Origin: Candidatus Collierbacteria bacterium
Lineage (GTDB): Bacteria > Patescibacteriota > Microgenomatia > UBA1400 > JACPES01
DNA: 64,000 nucleotides
Assembly (NCBI GenBank): GCA_016183365.1
Contig: JACPES010000003.1
Location: 409,154-473,153 of the forward strand
Reading direction: 5' to 3'
This document shows, in pieces, positions 21,001-48,000 of the stretch. Position 1 is the first letter of the stretch. Each line of letters begins with the position of its first letter. Position numbers: made by a program.

Positions 21001-24000
21001 CATCAGGTGGCGGAAGACGAATGGAACCAAGGAAGGGTCAAAAACGGGTTTGAGACGGGAAAGATATATCCGGCGACTGCCGCTGATCTACTGGTCGAAT
21101 TTGGAAATAAAAATGGGATTAAAGTAGTTAATTTTTTGCCTGATTTTAGAGCGGCTGCCCAACAAGAGCTTGATTTTTTGTATTATCCACACGATGGTCA
21201 TTTCACCGAAAAAGGGCATAGGGTGATGGCTGATAAGCTGAAAGAGGTTATAGATGATTACCTTACACACGATCGTTAAAAACGAAGACAGATTTATTAA
21301 AGCCGCTTTGGTTTCGGTCTTGGCGGTAAAGGATGTGGGAAGAGCATTAGTCTGGGATACCGGATCAATTGATAGAACTGTTCAGGAAATTTTATCAATA
21401 AAAGATTCGAGGATAGAATTTGCTCAAAAAGGAAATGTTAGCCGTAAGCAGCTGGTTTTATTGCGTAACGAGCAGTTAAGGATGACAAAAACTCCGTGGA
21501 TTTTATTGGTGGACGGGGATGAAATCTGGCCTGAAAATAATTTAAGAAAGCTAGTCTCTGCAATGTCCCGCGGATCGGGATCCGGCTCTGCCGGAAAACA
21601 ATGTGGGCTTGAAACTATTGCTTTAGTGAATAAAACTAGAAATGTTGTTGGCGATTTTTATCATTATTTACCGGAATCAAAAGGGCATTACAGGATTGGA
21701 TCTTGGACAGGACATTTGAATATCAGGGCAATCAGAAATTTACCCGGATTAACTGTTAAAGGAGAATATCCCAATGAATGGTATGAATTAAATGCCAAAA
21801 AAATCCAGGACCAGCCGGAAAAACTGGAATTTGTCGATACTTGGTATTTGCATCTGACCCATATGAGACGATCAAGCTCTTGGTTTGCGGAAAGCCTGAC
21901 AATCGACAGGTTAAAAAAACATAAATGGTTAGGAAAATTCAGAAAAGAAAATTTGTTTGTTATGAAAGAATCTGAATTACCGAAACTATCGGTAAGTTAG
22001 TGTCAATACTTTAATGCTATAGCAAGCGAGTATTGACAAAAATCTTCATCGAGCCGTCTTGAGGAGTCTTAAACCGGTGATTGACCGGATTAGGATCATC
22101 GGCCAATTTTGAATAAGGAATTTCAGATAGATAACTGTCTAAATGGCATCGTTCGGAGATTTCCGATAACAATTCTTCATTGCCCCAATCCGAAAAAATA
22201 ATGATCGCATCAGGACAAATATCCACAGCCGTCAATTCCTGGGCTCCATAAACAATTAAACCGGTATGGAAACGGAAAGTAAAATCATCGTAATTCACGG
22301 CCAAACTTTTGATGCCGGAAAAAGATTTGGAGTTAAGTATTTTAACTAACTGTTCGTTGGTTCCGGTATACGGGTGGGTAATTTCAAATAAATAGTCTGG
22401 CAGAAGTTTAAGGCTCGGGAAAAAGGCGATAAATATGGTAGCGACGGCCAATTTTTTTGGCAATGAAGCAATAATCCGAGCAGCAATATAAGCAAAAAAC
22501 GGAATCAGCGGGACTAGATAACGGAAAAAATATGGATGATTGAAAGTATAGAGCGTTAAGTTGGTTAAGATAATCAATGAAAACAAAACATTTTTATCAT
22601 CGGCCAGAAATTTTTGGCGGATATTCGGTAATAAAAACGGAACTAAAAGAAAAAACGGAAAGATGAATTTATGGATATAGATGAAGTGCCAATGAAGATT
22701 TTGGTTGATGATTGCTATATTGAAATTGAGATTTTGGCCGCCAATTTTGAGCCAGATTGCCCAGGGAAGAGTAAAGATGAGAGTTATCAAAAATAGACGG
22801 GCGAAAAATGAAACATCGTGAAGTTTATCCTGCGAAGCCCCGTACCGTCTGGTACAGGGCGAAGCAGGACCCAGCTCCGCAGGGCGAAACTTCACGGCGG
22901 TGGTTAGCTGATGAATCCAAAAAGAAATCTGTAATGCCAGCGCGCCGGGGAGGAAGCTATGAAAGAGCAGAATGCTACCGAGAATATATTTAGAGTAGCT
23001 TAAGGTCCGACCTTGACGTACGTTAAGGTCGGACCTTTTTATAATCCAAGGATATCCATCCACCGCCATTAAGGTAAACAATAATGCCAGCGAGTAATAT
23101 CTGGCTTGCCTGATATGTAAAAAAAGCGGGACAGAAGTTAAAACTAAGCCGACTGCCAGCCAATAAAACAGTTTGTTTTTAGGTCCATACCGCTCAATAA
23201 AATTCAACCAATACCAAAAAAATAAAATTCCGGCCAGAGCAAAAGGAAGTCTGGCGGCCAAGGCGGAAATCCCGAAGATTTTGAATGATACGGCGGTCAT
23301 ATAAAATTGAAACCAGGGATGCCAACGCCAAAAAGGACTGACAGAAAATTGATAACTCCAATCCTGGCTGATTGGCCCCTGGTCGTCGTAAGCGTAAGGC
23401 AGCCATTGGTTGGATTTAACCATTTGCCTGGCAACTAGAGCAGTTTCCGCTTCATCTTGCCACAGAGTTCTGGCGCCAAGATTGGGAATAACTAAAAGGG
23501 TAAAAATAACCGTCAATATAATTTTTGGCCAAAAGTAATTAAACTTCATAGGGGTTTAGGTTTGAATTTAATAAATAACAGAATCCAACCTGCGGAAGCG
23601 ATAGCAGTAATCGCCAAGCCGATTTTGTATGAAATGGGGTCATAGCGAAGAGATATTTCAGACGGCGACACTAAAAATGGCACAATGACCGACTGTTGAT
23701 TAATATTAACCGGATAGATTTTGATTTGCTTGTTATTGACGTATGCCTTCCAACCCGGATACCAACTTCGATTGAATACTATGATTTTTTCATTTTCATT
23801 AGGCAATGTTTCACTTTCCCATAGGATTTCACCGGGAATAAAATCCGATTGCGCTATTCTTCCCAGGGCCTCACCGATGTCTTTAACTTTATAAATTTTG
23901 CTTGATGTCCAAACATCCGGCATGGCCGATGGATTTTCTATGATTTCAATTTTTCCGGATGAAGCGTCAAGAATATGAGTGACTCCAAAAACGTCACGGA

Positions 24001-45000: not shown

Positions 45001-48000
45001 AAGGAATAATTACTAATCCGAGGCAACTGCACATTTGCTATTTGTTGACCCCGACCAGATATTTATGGAGTCATGCAAACGAATATTTATCGGAAATCCC
45101 GACGGCGTTGAAGCCGTTGGCGCGGATTGCTCAAGTTAAATTGAGGGTTTGGGATTTTATGGCCGCCCAACGGCCGGATTACTTTTTAAGTATCAGTAAA
45201 TTAGTTCAACGCAGATGTTGGAAATATTATCGGCGAGAGGCGGAGGTAGTGTATCCGATGTTGGGATTATCGAGCTCTTTGAACGTTGAACGTCGAACGT
45301 TGAACGTTGATCAGCGATCAACGCACAGCGCGCAACGGTCAGCTGTTAAGTCTTACTTTCTGGTCGTTTCCCGTTTGGTTCCCTATAAAAGAATTGATTT
45401 AGCCATTAAAGCGTATAACAGATTAAAACTGCCGTTGGTCATAGTCGGGACCGGGTCAGAAGAAAAAAGCTTAAAACGTTTAGCAGGTCGAACTATAAAA
45501 TTCACCGGATATTTGACAGATCAGGGGCTGATTGAGTACTATCGAAATGCTCGAGCGATTATAATGCCCCAAGAGGAAGATTTTGGATTAACCGCGGTCG
45601 AGGCTTTGTCATTCGGAGTTCCGGTAATAAGTTATAAACACAGTGGCGCGGCTGAGATGATAAAGGATGGAGAAACCGGAATTCTATTCGGCGAACAATC
45701 GGTAAATTCGCTAGCTGAAGCGATAAAAAAAATTAAAAATGTGAAGTTTCGCCCTGCGGAGCGGGGTCCTGCTTCGCCCTGTACCAGACGGTACGGGGCT
45801 TCGCAGGATAAACTTCACAATGAGATTTATTCTCAAAATAGATTTAAACAGGAATTTAAAGATAAAATAAACAAACTATGGATGAAGCATCAAGAAAACA
45901 TTTATTCGCGGTAATTTTGGCCGGCGGCGGCGGCACCAGATTATGGCCCCGGTCGACCAATGCCAAACCCAAACAGTTTTTACGGCTGATCTCGGATAAG
46001 ACCATGCTTCAGGAAACCTTCTTACGGATTACTTCGATCATTCCTTCTCAAAGGGTTTTGGTAATCACCAATTCAAAATATAAATCTATGGTAGAAACGG
46101 ATTTGCCTTCGGTGCCTGTAAAAAATATTTTTGCCGAACCGGAAAAAAGAGATACTGCTATGGCGATGGGGGTAGGCGCGATTATGGCGTCTTGGCTAGA
46201 CCCGGAAGCGGTAATTATTAATTTAGCCGCCGATCATGTTGTTAAAAATGAGGATGAATTCCATAGGACGATTCTGGCGGCGGCTGCCGCTGCCCAAAGC
46301 GGCAATTTCCTGGTAACGGTAGGGATTAGTCCGACTTCCCCCCATACCGGTTTGGGTTATATAAAAATAGGTGAAAAGATTAATGAGCTTAACGGCCTTC
46401 CGATTTTTAAAGTTACCGGGTTTACGGAAAAACCGAAGACAGGTAAAGCCAAAGAATTTCTGGCAACGGGAAAATATTTTTGGAATGCCAATAATTACGT
46501 TTGGACCGCTAATTCGGCACTTGAGTCCTTTAAAAAACATTTACCCAAAACTTACTCCCAGTTATTAAAATTGAAAGAAGCCTTGGACGGAAAAGAGTTA
46601 AATAAAGCGATCGGAGAGGCTTATTCATCGGTTGAGCCAATATCTATCGATTATGGTGTATCTGAAAAAGCCGAAAATTTATTGTTGGTGCCCGGAGACT
46701 TTGGGTGGAGCGATATTGGGGATTGGCAAGTGGTTTACGACCTGTCGACTAAGGATAAAATGGGGAATGTGATTGACCAGTCACGAGGAGTACCTCCGAT
46801 ACTAATTGACGTCAAGGGCTGTTTTGTTTGCGGAGGAAAAAAACTATTGACTGCGGTTGGAGTGGAAAATATGATAATAGTAGAAACCAAAAAAGCAGTT
46901 TTAATAGTTCCCAAAAATAAAGCCCAATCGGTAAAGCTTATTGTCGAGTGGCTTAAAGTAAAAGGCATGACCGAATATTTATGACAATTTCAGCCTATGG
47001 GATTGGAAAAAGGGCTTTAGACGTTATTTCAGCGGTAACATTAATTGTTCTTTGTACCCCTTTATGGATAATTATTCCGATATTAATTAAATTAGAGAGT
47101 TCTGGGCCGGCGATTTTTTCTCAACCCAGAGTCGGCCGGAAAGGCAAGATATTTAAGATTTTAAAGTTTCGTTCGATGGTCGTGAACGCGGATGAGTTAT
47201 TATGGAAGAACCGGGAATATAAAGAATTAAGGAATAAATTTACAGAGTCGGATTGGAAATTAGAAAACGATCCCAGGGTAACTAAAATCGGATGGATTTT
47301 ACGGCGTTTATCCATTGATGAATTTCCCCAAGTGTTTAATATTTTAAAAGGAGATATGAGCATTGTCGGTCCCCGGGCTTACCGGCCCCAAGAGATCGAG
47401 GCCCAAGCCAAAAAATATGCCCATACCAAAAAATGGATCGAGAAAGCGTTATTGGTTAAACCGGGGATTACCGGACTTTGGCAGGTTTCAGGCAGAAATG
47501 ACGTCCCATTTGACAAGAGGGTCCAAATTGACGCAGAATATGCCAGCAGGAAATCGCTGTCGGAGGATCTGATGATTTTATTGAAGACGCCAAAGGCTAT
47601 GTTGAGCAAGTGGTGATTGCAACCCTTGAATAAGTTGTTTTCAACAGTCATTCCGTGCTCGACACGGAATCTATATAATATAGATTCCAGCTTTCGTTGA
47701 AATGACATGGAAAACGGAGTTATTTAACACTCTTTAATTTATGGAAGAAGACAAAAGTGAAAACCTAAATGTTAAATCCCCGGCGGAAAACACCAGCCGT
47801 AAGGGGTTAAAATTTTTCCTTCTTGGATTTGGAACTATTCTGCTGATTGTGGCGGTCTTGGGGCTATTTGTCGGATTGCAGGCCAAAAAAGTCTATACCG
47901 AGACTTTAAAGCTTCAACCCCTAATTGAAAAAGCTCAAGGCAATTTTTCGGCCCAAGATCTGTCGGCCTTAAGGAGGACTTTAGCTGATATAAATAATCA

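Follow-up and report, generated by a model that had tools for sequence, protein, structure and literature searches.

The Nostoc SDR family appears, by analogy, to be the closest precedent for the sequences described here: the SDR4-6 modules of Nostoc punctiforme, 21–27 nt in length and the subject of work by Elhai and colleagues in 2008, are reportedly regarded as mobile and are said to lie within each other, within open reading frames (ORFs) and within RNA genes. The locus considered here is a 64,000-nt stretch of Candidatus Collierbacteria bacterium contig JACPES010000003.1 (positions 409,154–473,153, forward strand), referred to throughout as the window, from a genome of the candidate phyla radiation (CPR, or Patescibacteria). 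Two glycosyltransferase-type genes in the window each carry, in frame, a 78-bp repeat whose innermost part is a 22-nt stem-loop (the 22-mer). This stem-loop represents an apparently undescribed family, present in many bacterial phyla and in one archaeal metagenome-assembled genome (MAG). Set side by side by description, the Nostoc repeats and those reported here are both dispersed repeats of 21–27 nt, present or absent between relatives and nested in other repeats, and both kinds of host genome are rich in heptamer tandem repeats; they differ in sequence, and in hosts that are cyanobacteria in the one case and CPR together with many other phyla in the other. Elhai (2015) describes SDR5 as inserting precisely within the HIP1 palindrome. 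For the 22-mer, the corresponding target appears to be the apex of a hairpin, with a duplication of 4–6 nt centered on the dyad.

MITEs, short for miniature inverted-repeat transposable elements, usually measure about 50–500 bp. The 22-mer resembles them in its terminal inverted repeats (9-bp arms), target duplication, lack of coding capacity, high copy number and presumed mobilization in trans. Unlike a MITE, however, it is 22 nt long (27 with the duplication) and consists essentially of two abutting 9-bp arms, with a duplication whose length seems to track the target loop (4–6 nt) rather than being fixed. Neither a parent insertion sequence (IS) with these ends nor any long element bounded by the 9-bp arms was found in the window and the 1.37 Mb of loci fetched from other genomes.

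Three further groups of palindromic repeats invite comparison. Rickettsia palindromic elements (RPEs) are non-autonomous, lie in frame in unrelated housekeeping genes and are predicted to be compatible with the host protein fold (PMC10969869). In-frame insertion in unrelated protein genes is shared by RPEs (Ogata et al., 2000) and the present repeats, but RPEs are ∼100–150 bp long, confined to Rickettsia and conserved in peptide within each family, whereas the units here are 5–7 times smaller, at 21–30 nt; they are nested, occur across phyla, and are translated in more than one frame and in either orientation. Repetitive extragenic palindromes (REPs), which carry GTAG or CGTC tags (PMC3733652), and REPINs, for which movement in the form of a hairpin-forming single strand has been proposed (PMC3116915), are likewise short GC-rich hairpins in many copies, and insertion of the IS1397 type into REP loops offers a similar parallel. 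In contrast to the 22-mer, REPs are extragenic and lack a target duplication; ∼40% of 22-mers, and all window copies, are intragenic, and none of the GTAG or CGTC tags stands at the 5′ end. Finally, the PARCELs of Mollicutes (PMC2996958) and the palindromes of Nematomorpha mitochondrial genes (PMC6649704) also lie in coding sequence with both arms translated, but these are longer repeats or inverted repeats encoding structured or amphipathic peptides, not nested hairpins of 20–30 nt with duplications.

A 78-bp repeat built from three hairpin layers

The genes concerned belong to a cell-envelope glycosylation cluster that is followed by dcw genes, as judged from the scanned ORFs of the window and from genes called in two syntenic relatives, L001 and L083 (L-numbers denote loci fetched from other genomes or metagenomes):

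44715..45914, + strand: host gene 1, GT4 glycosyltransferase, 399 aa (Pfam Glycos_transf_1, E = 3.6e-32, residues 212–341)
22017..23549, − strand: host gene 2, 510-aa multi-pass membrane protein, GT-C/PMT_2-like
31377..32297, + strand: host gene 3, GT2 glycosyltransferase (Pfam Glycos_transf_2, E = 8.2e-30)

P0001, named "glycosyltransferase [Candidatus Collierbacteria bacterium]" and encoded on a contig of 588,265 bp, is 100% identical to the GT4 protein. The 510-aa protein, assigned to GT-C in an earlier, sequence-only reading of the window, retains that assignment (PMT_2/GT39-like) through distant homologs only, which carry PF13231 (PMT_2); it has no Pfam match of its own. A Pfam scan of 30 window ORFs, together with the genes called in L001 and L083, revealed no transposase, integrase, HUH protein (including RAYT, the Y1 HUH transposase associated with REPs) or reverse transcriptase.

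As the same reading had proposed, 78-bp repeats lie within two unrelated glycosyltransferase-type genes. A repeat finder reports them as inverted copies of 82 nt with 98% complementarity, and by eye a single base differs within the 78 bp (GCGGGG versus GCTGGG). The repeat is real and far from chance. The copies are near-identical reverse complements in window coordinates, but relative to their host genes, which lie on opposite strands, they have the same sense orientation. Because orientation and frame are both shared, translation yields almost the same 26-aa peptide from each, VKFRPAE(L/R)GPASPCTRRYGASQDKLH (VKFRPAELGPASPCTRRYGASQDKLH and VKFRPAERGPASPCTRRYGASQDKLH). What had been described as one palindrome is instead a set of three hairpin layers, each inside the loop of the next outer one:

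45741..45818, + strand: 78-bp three-layer composite, in frame, GT4 residues 343–368
22818..22895, − strand: second 78-bp composite, 77/78 identical, sense to the 510-aa host gene
45741..45751, + strand: layer 1, left arm GTGAAGTTT and loop bases CG of a 21-bp hairpin (bare GTGAAGTTTCGTAAACTTCAC at the same codon in L003)
45752..45808, + strand: layer 2, 30-bp double hairpin CCCTGCGGAGCGGGG-T-CCTGCTTCGCAGG-A, split by layer 3 (without layer 3 in L001; inverted in L207)
45772..45776, + strand: duplicated target CTTCG, left copy (single CTTCG in L001)
45777..45798, + strand: layer 3, 22-nt stem-loop CCCTGTACC-AGAC-GGTACGGGG (from occurrence search, relatives and folding)
45799..45803, + strand: duplicated target CTTCG, right copy (27-bp indel relative to L001)
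45809..45818, + strand: layer 1, loop base T and right arm AAACTTCAC (from comparison with the GT4 DNA of relatives)

The outermost layer is a 21-bp hairpin, GTGAAGTTT-CGT-AAACTTCAC, with 9-bp arms and a 3-nt loop. In the 30-bp module, the duplicated CTTCG corresponds to the triloop TTC of the second hairpin together with its closing C-G pair. The layers add 21, 30 and 27 nt (the last being the 22-mer plus its 5-nt duplication), each a multiple of three. In the second composite, the 22-mer occupies 22838–22859 between copies of CGAAG, the complement of CTTCG, at 22833–22837 and 22860–22864. The 22-mer, CCCTGTACCAGACGGTACGGGG, has three sites in the window (22838, 31565 and 45777), even with 3 mismatches allowed, and none in 100 shuffles. 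It had been taken for a perfect palindrome, but its 9-bp stem contains a T·G mismatch and its AGAC loop is asymmetric, so that the element is oriented; each window copy is matched on one strand only, and all three are sense to their host genes. None of its six frames contains a stop codon. Folded as RNA, a check that the sequence-only reading had suggested, the 78-mer forms a three-way junction (−46.6 kcal/mol, z = −6.2).

Intermediate states at the same codons in relatives

The layers can be observed separately at the GT4 codon in related genomes. L003 has the bare 21-bp hairpin, CTT-GTGAAGTTT-CGT-AAACTTCAC-AAT. In L001, which is syntenic with the window and 78.5% identical to it in DNA over 20 kb, a further 30 bp, CCCTGCGGAGCGGGGTCCTGCTTCGCAGGA, lies between the loop bases CG and T, and L207 has the same arrangement with the whole interior inverted. 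The window corresponds to the L001-like state plus 27 bp, comprising the 22-mer and a second CTTCG. At the GT-C site, the bare 21-mer is found in L084, a degenerate copy in L085 and a different palindrome, AAGGCCCGGCCTTGC-AAA-GCAAGGCCGGGCCTT, in L083, so that the orthologs read VKFRKLH, VKFRELH or, from the palindrome, RPGLAKQGRA. The 21-bp hairpin is itself dispersed, occurring at window 36459–36479, in the L084 GT-C ortholog and at L083:15917.

The presence of different palindromes at one codon is not confined to the GT-C site (22818–22895), where the 21-bp hairpin stands against a AAGGCCNGGCCTT-type palindrome in L083. Unrelated palindromes also occupy orthologous codons of different Collierbacteria at 36459 (versus L001, ∼1871), in the GT2 loop and at 29323, where three genomes (the window, L083 and L085) have three different palindromes at 29323–29359. 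This suggests that a hairpin, once present, turns its site into a replacement hotspot.

The 30-bp module of layer 2 belongs to a family with eight window members, five uninterrupted and three with a 22-mer, compared with ∼0.7 in shuffles. Where the stems of these members differ, the changes come in pairs (CAGGC/GCCTG, CCCGC/GCGGG and CTGGC/GCCAG, among others). Besides the two composites, the window contains the following modules and a third layer-1 hairpin:

31541..31595, + strand: variant double hairpin (CCCGCAAAGCAGG-AT-CCCG...CGG) with 22-mer at 31565–31586, GT2 gene
27714..27743, + strand: complete unoccupied 30-bp double hairpin, 970-aa membrane protein, PAEQGPASRD
21567..21594, + strand: uninterrupted double hairpin (module family search)
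27369..27396, + strand: uninterrupted double hairpin inside a longer inverted repeat, 27357–27405
36858..36885, + strand: uninterrupted double hairpin, partner of 27369, at the 3′ end of ORF 35724–36896
43534..43561, + strand: uninterrupted double hairpin within an 84-bp insertion relative to L001
36459..36479, − strand: third 21-bp layer-1 hairpin, bare, in opposite orientation (VKFTKLH), GT4 gene 35724–36896

The first two had been read as truncated copies of the 78-mer, the second with the boundaries 27724–27752. Instead, one is a variant module with its own 22-mer and CTTCG duplication (31560–31564 and 31587–31591), read in another frame (RPVPDGTGLR), and the other is an intact module that the 22-mer does not occupy. 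The GT2 insert is not present in the orthologs of L083 and L085. The site at 27714–27743 is empty in L085; in L083 it is occupied by a variant whose hairpin 1 contains a decayed 22-nt hairpin between CAAAG flanks.

The 22-nt stem-loop in other genomes

An exact search for CCCYGTACCAGACGGTACRGGG on both strands of one genome per GTDB species (596 Gb) found the 22-mer at no fewer than 79 loci, where arithmetic predicts ∼0.3 by chance; at least 120 JGI metagenome contigs also contain it. By the MAG assignments as given, the patescibacterial hosts include Levy-, Curtiss-, Davies-, Shapiro-, Magasanik-, Peri- and Saccharibacteria and WWE3, and the others uncultured Gammaproteobacteria, Nitrospirota/Thermodesulfovibrionia, Acidobacteriota/Terriglobia, Omnitrophota, "Deltaproteobacteria" and one Bathyarchaeia MAG. 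Phages or plasmids are unlikely to be the vector: a 32-mer compared by BLAST with 50,697 phage records and 72,556 plasmid records returned chance-level matches only, and IMG/VR contains one exact 22-mer match. In search of a linked mobilizer, an all-versus-all comparison of 2,140 ORFs from the 79 genome loci revealed no family common to more than 6 loci, a number reached by a single unannotated cluster, apart from one syntenic block of four Acidobacteriota loci. No Rfam covariance model matches the window at gathering score, which sets the repeat apart from known structured RNAs. No paper in the literature searched contains the 14-nt core, whether spelled as DNA or as RNA, and searches on palindromic in-frame elements in CPR found nothing specific.

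Outside the 22 nt, nothing is conserved among the copies except a short direct repeat. A perfect 5-nt repeat flanks 25 of 83 genome copies (0.2% at offset control positions) and a 4/5 match flanks 12 more (control 1.7%), so that ∼45% of genome copies have one or the other, compared with ∼2% of controls. In an independent metagenome set, 18 of 71 copies have the perfect repeat and 11 more a 4/5 match. At least 20 different repeats of 4–6 nt are represented, therefore many independent events; the commonest are CTTCG/CGAAG, CGGAG/CTCCG, CAGAG, CAAAG/CTTTG and TCAAA/TTTGA, and the flank consensus is C-N-N-N-G on either side. When the empty sites are reconstructed, the duplicated bases are central in a palindrome, as in CCTG-CTTCG-CAGG, CGCG-TCAAA-CGCG and GTCATTCTGAG-CGGAG-CGAAGAATC. 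In the target GTCATTCCCG-CGAAAG-CGGGAAT (also CCCG-CGAAAG-CGGG), a 6-nt duplication falls at a GAAA tetraloop. Unoccupied paralogs of several targets are present in the fetched DNA, including window 17727–17777 for the GTCATTCCCG... family. A recurrent target (in many loci from L004 to L165) is another hairpin repeat present across phyla, GTCATYCTGAGCG-NNG-CGAAGRATC / GATCCTTCGAC-TTC-GCTCAGGATGAC, which seems to be a widespread, unnamed element itself.

About 40% of the genome copies (36 of 83) lie in stop-free ORFs of at least 150 aa, 25 in sense and 11 in antisense, in all frames. Approximately 27 of 43 copies with 5-nt duplications are in long ORFs, compared with ∼2 of 16 with 4- or 6-nt duplications (two sets that overlap slightly); this fits what a reading-frame filter predicts. 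Coding examples include a DnaX-like protein in a gammaproteobacterial MAG, an ATP-dependent DNA ligase, and an ArgRS of a Shapirobacteria MAG in which the insert stands opposite a 13-residue gap in the alignment to PDB 2zue. Several 23S rRNA genes in uncultured Gammaproteobacteria, Brevinema and Patescibacteria MAGs also contain a copy (L017:3550, L018:6955, L021:1949 and L047:1251), and two more copies lie within or beside a group I intron downstream of a 16S gene (L053:4413 and 4379). In L034, the 22-mer abuts the 3′ end of tRNA-Asn, and the duplicated CGGAG is the end of the acceptor stem.

Tandem or adjacent 22-mers or variants are found at L062:566–614 and in L052, L061, L076 and L013, for example NPVPDGTGRRPVPDGTGRR in a GT2-like ORF. 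Their period is 27 nt, and they show repeated insertion at a duplicated target. They differ from CRISPR repeats in that 22-mers are otherwise dispersed and the occasional tandem pairs, as in L062, have no spacers.

At L010:1300, L035:1664 and L050:6718 (also L107, L147 and L155), the 22-mer lies ∼20 nt upstream of the start of the same gene, in the context ...CGGAG[22]AGGAGAAGGAGAAAAAATCATG; this orthologous position covers at least three Acidobacteriota/Terriglobia MAGs. A fourth Acidobacteriota locus, L061, shares the neighborhood but has a different flank, CGCGG. The upstream copy could be an exapted regulatory or terminator hairpin.

Constraint on the stem

Fetched loci and the window provided 31 distinct variants of the 22-mer with at most 2 changes per arm. 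Six of the nine stem pairs show compensatory double changes (for example T6/A17 to C/G, C3/G20 to A/T and C1/G22 to T/A), amounting to 17 compensatory cells compared with 5.0 ± 1.6 in column shuffles (0 of 500 as high). The loop varies freely, and the arm consensus is CCCYGTACC / GGTACRGGG. Stem changes run from Watson-Crick to Watson-Crick pairs, which fits a DNA palindrome (hairpin, cruciform or site for a symmetric protein) at least as well as an RNA structure. The T·G wobble of the window copies had raised the possibility of a strand-specific RNA structure; this is ruled out, as positions 4 and 19 vary independently (T/A 30, T/G 27, C/A 21, C/G 5). Nor is the element an archaeal bulge-helix-bulge micro-intron, given that by inspection the duplicated loop bases form a symmetric 3×3 internal loop, not bulges staggered by 4 bp.

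A model for insertion and its competitors

Considered together, we favor a reading in which these are mobile, non-autonomous, nested hairpin elements that are tolerated in frame, and put its probability at roughly three in four. At the GT4 site, layer 2 would have inserted into the loop of the 21-bp layer-1 hairpin, and layer 3 into the second of the layer-2 hairpins, at its triloop, with duplication of 5 nt centered on the dyad (C-TTC-G). For the 22-mer, recognition of the target palindrome may depend on its hairpin or cruciform shape, or on a symmetric protein or dimer, and an enzyme acting in trans may cut it with a stagger of ∼5 nt (range 4–6) placed symmetrically around the dyad; the 22-bp element would then be joined in as a copy, and gap repair would leave the direct repeat. 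We regard the odds that a staggered cut specifically is responsible as even. The inverted arms would also let the interior flip. The composite, or its inner 57 bp, would subsequently have been copied between the layer-1 hairpins of the GT4 and GT-C genes: the near-identical 78-mers show that either the inner 57-bp composite or the whole nest moved between two layer-1 hairpins, and the route may have been the same activity or hairpin-to-hairpin conversion. Since the increments are multiples of three and the 22-mer contains no stops, copies in surface loops and linkers would survive purifying selection and be translated as extra coil.

A broader formulation is one that we advance tentatively and would sooner doubt than accept. 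In it, CCCYGTACC-NNNN-GGTACRGGG would represent an unrecognized class of mobile DNA across prokaryotes, inserting at apexes, duplicating loops and building nests, a stop-free 27-nt colonist of protein-coding sequence, rRNA and the neighborhood of tRNAs in CPR, Gammaproteobacteria, Nitrospirota, Acidobacteriota and possibly Archaea. A widely distributed structure-specific enzyme would power this class, which would be smaller than the MITEs and REPs so far described and in the size range of the Nostoc SDR repeats.

Several points weigh against mobility. No mobilizing enzyme, excision intermediate or empty/filled polymorphism within a population was observed, and every "empty" site belongs to a diverged relative (78.5% DNA identity in the case of L001). 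Layer 2 entered without a target duplication, so that different layers may have inserted by different mechanisms. No direct repeat can be recognized at about half of the 22-mer copies, some are flanked by A-runs and T-runs as ordinary terminators are, and the two isolate hosts (Kocuria and Mangrovibacter) lack duplications and could carry unrelated hairpins. Many copies traveled inside an outer repeat as that repeat multiplied, and copy number therefore overstates insertion events. In a minimum free energy (MFE) folding test, the duplicated pentamer fell in a closed loop at 6 of 31 reconstructed sites, compared with 21 of 600 control CNNNG sites; the test is noisy, and apex targeting therefore partly rests on inspection.

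The main rival, particularly for layers 1 and 2, dispenses with dedicated transposition. The sequences would have spread between pre-existing hairpins by recombination, gene conversion or template switching, for instance through cleavage of a hairpin apex on the lagging strand and microhomology-based repair from an ectopic hairpin. The two 78-mers share just 9–11 bp of homology outside the transferred 57 bp, and relatives have a layer-1 hairpin at both sites, a pattern that resembles hairpin-to-hairpin conversion; the different palindromes at the same codon of orthologs (at least four sites), the entry of layer 2 without a duplication and the flipping of the interior between arms likewise favor this rival. 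However, copying from a donor flanked by one pentamer cannot make at least 20 different 4–6-nt duplications in unrelated contexts and phyla, and some targets (the tRNA 3′ end, 23S rRNA, unique coding sequence) are not repeated elements at all. We consider this explanation unlikely.

Selection for function is less likely again. On this account the hairpins would be kept as terminators or attenuators, mRNA stabilizers, translation pauses or sites for a host protein, and their spread would reflect exaptation, not selfish DNA. Exactness of the 22-mer across phyla and the compensatory changes in its stem would be expected of a functional element, as would the orthologous copy upstream of the same start in at least three Acidobacteriota MAGs (L010, L035 and L050), the A-run/T-run flanks of several copies, which resemble bidirectional terminators, and the modest sense bias in ORFs (25:11). 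Yet no common function covers six reading frames, rRNA, an intron, intergenic DNA and other repeats; presence at the same codon varies among close relatives, there is no Rfam family, and almost half of the variants lack pairing at stem position 4/19.

The inserted segment in the host proteins

At the protein level, the segment behaves as a DNA repeat tolerated in coding sequence, as the sequence-only reading had supposed, and is not a conserved motif. In an alignment of 118 GT4 homologs, the columns of the insert hold at least 5 residues in only 8, all among the 24 best-scoring and with partial, inverted or other sequences there; in the other 110 they are essentially empty. Most GT-C orthologs lack the segment, having the bare hairpin or another palindrome instead. 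The observation that the sequence-only reading had named as its own refutation, conservation of the 26 aa in homologous glycosyltransferases, is thus not borne out. An AlphaFold2 model of the GT4 protein (119-sequence alignment) has an otherwise confident GT-B fold (mean predicted local confidence, pLDDT, of 90.3), in which residues 343–368 are predicted as coil with pLDDT of ∼49–70, between helices 330–342 and 362–371. This insertion point is consistent with the surface loop that had been anticipated.

The element had also been credited with encoding the same peptide in either orientation, which is not supported in that form. Inversion of the interior in L207 changes RPAERGPASQD to ILRSRTPLRGA, and the GT2 copy of the 22-mer is read in another frame; the 22-mer peptides are PCTRRYG, PVPDGTG or LYQTVQG, depending on frame. 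Only the 9-bp outer arms are neutral to orientation, giving VKF...KLH both ways (window 36459–36479 and L207).

We give almost no credence to the 26-aa segment as a genuine conserved motif or domain of both glycosyltransferases: the near-identical peptides in two proteins would invite that view, but it is refuted by the GT4 and GT-C homologs and by the other frame in GT2, and identity at the nucleotide level (77/78), non-coding occurrences elsewhere and the predicted disorder of the segment also count against it. An error of sequencing or assembly, for instance a chimera formed by adapters or hairpins, is just as negligible, for although the exact window protein P0001 comes from a single contig, the element occurs with different target duplications in MEGAHIT and SPAdes assemblies of many studies, reading frames are kept, intermediate states recur in independent ENA, JGI and Logan assemblies, and artefacts do not make target duplications at hairpin apexes.

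Consequences for proteins and annotation

The inserts illustrate how proteins of streamlined CPR genomes are remodeled by the insertion of 20–30-nt hairpins in loops, a cheap source of length and sequence variation in the surface and linker regions of cell-envelope enzymes. They can likewise give rise to annotation artefacts and to odd peptides among metagenomic proteins. With its exact sequence, length and duplication, the 22-mer is a searchable marker of apex-targeting insertion, through which the enzyme could be sought by phylogenetic profiling. If such an enzyme exists, structure-specific DNA insertion would be of mechanistic and possibly biotechnological interest. The spread across phyla also prompts one to ask how 22 nt can stay identical over such distances.

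Other repeats and genes in the window

A "cloverleaf" repeat, GTCATTCC-CGCGAAAGCG-GGAATCTATTTAAATAGATTCC-GTGTCAAGCAC-GGAATGAC, comprises an outer stem and three hairpins and encodes the peptide IPAKAGIYLNRFRVKPGMT. Its first hairpin is a 22-mer target in other genomes (L033 and L058). In the 970-aa ORF, the cloverleaf is bare in L085, absent in L083 and, in the window, occupied by two further inserts nested within the loops of its first and third hairpins. The window copies are:

17727–17786: cloverleaf repeat
28398–28570: cloverleaf repeat
47647–47678: cloverleaf repeat
53912–53962: cloverleaf repeat

A second palindrome family, AAGGCCAGGCCTTT...AAAGGCCTGGCCTT, occurs at 27882–27917, 33896–33931 and 52557–52592; one member is in frame in the 970-aa ORF (RPGLYGKGQAF) and is kept in L083. 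Tandem repeats of 7–8 nt (ACGTTGA, AATTCAG, ATTGTTAA and AATTTTC), several of them intragenic, resemble the short tandemly repeated repetitive (STRR) sequences of cyanobacteria:

45283–45310: short tandem repeat, encoding the low-pLDDT inter-domain linker of the GT4 protein (residues ∼181–210)
10837–10864: short tandem repeat
35146–35197: short tandem repeat
42764–42808: short tandem repeat
10165–10211: short tandem repeat
51679–51733: short tandem repeat
17132–17262: short tandem repeat
31530–31615: short tandem repeat

Between recO and glyS, a structured segment of 149 bp (50241–50389, −48.7 kcal/mol) is absent from L001; an E-value scan of this segment against Rfam gave a chance match only and no credible one. 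An ORF at 10450–10824 (− strand) strongly matches PF05635, the "23S rRNA-intervening sequence protein" (E = 2.8e-38); it does not lie in an rRNA gene but has a sugar epimerase/dehydratase gene on either side. Finally, adjacent HEPN (PF05168) and nucleotidyltransferase (PF01909) genes at 62315–63009 (+ strand) form a pair typical of HEPN/MNT toxin-antitoxin modules.

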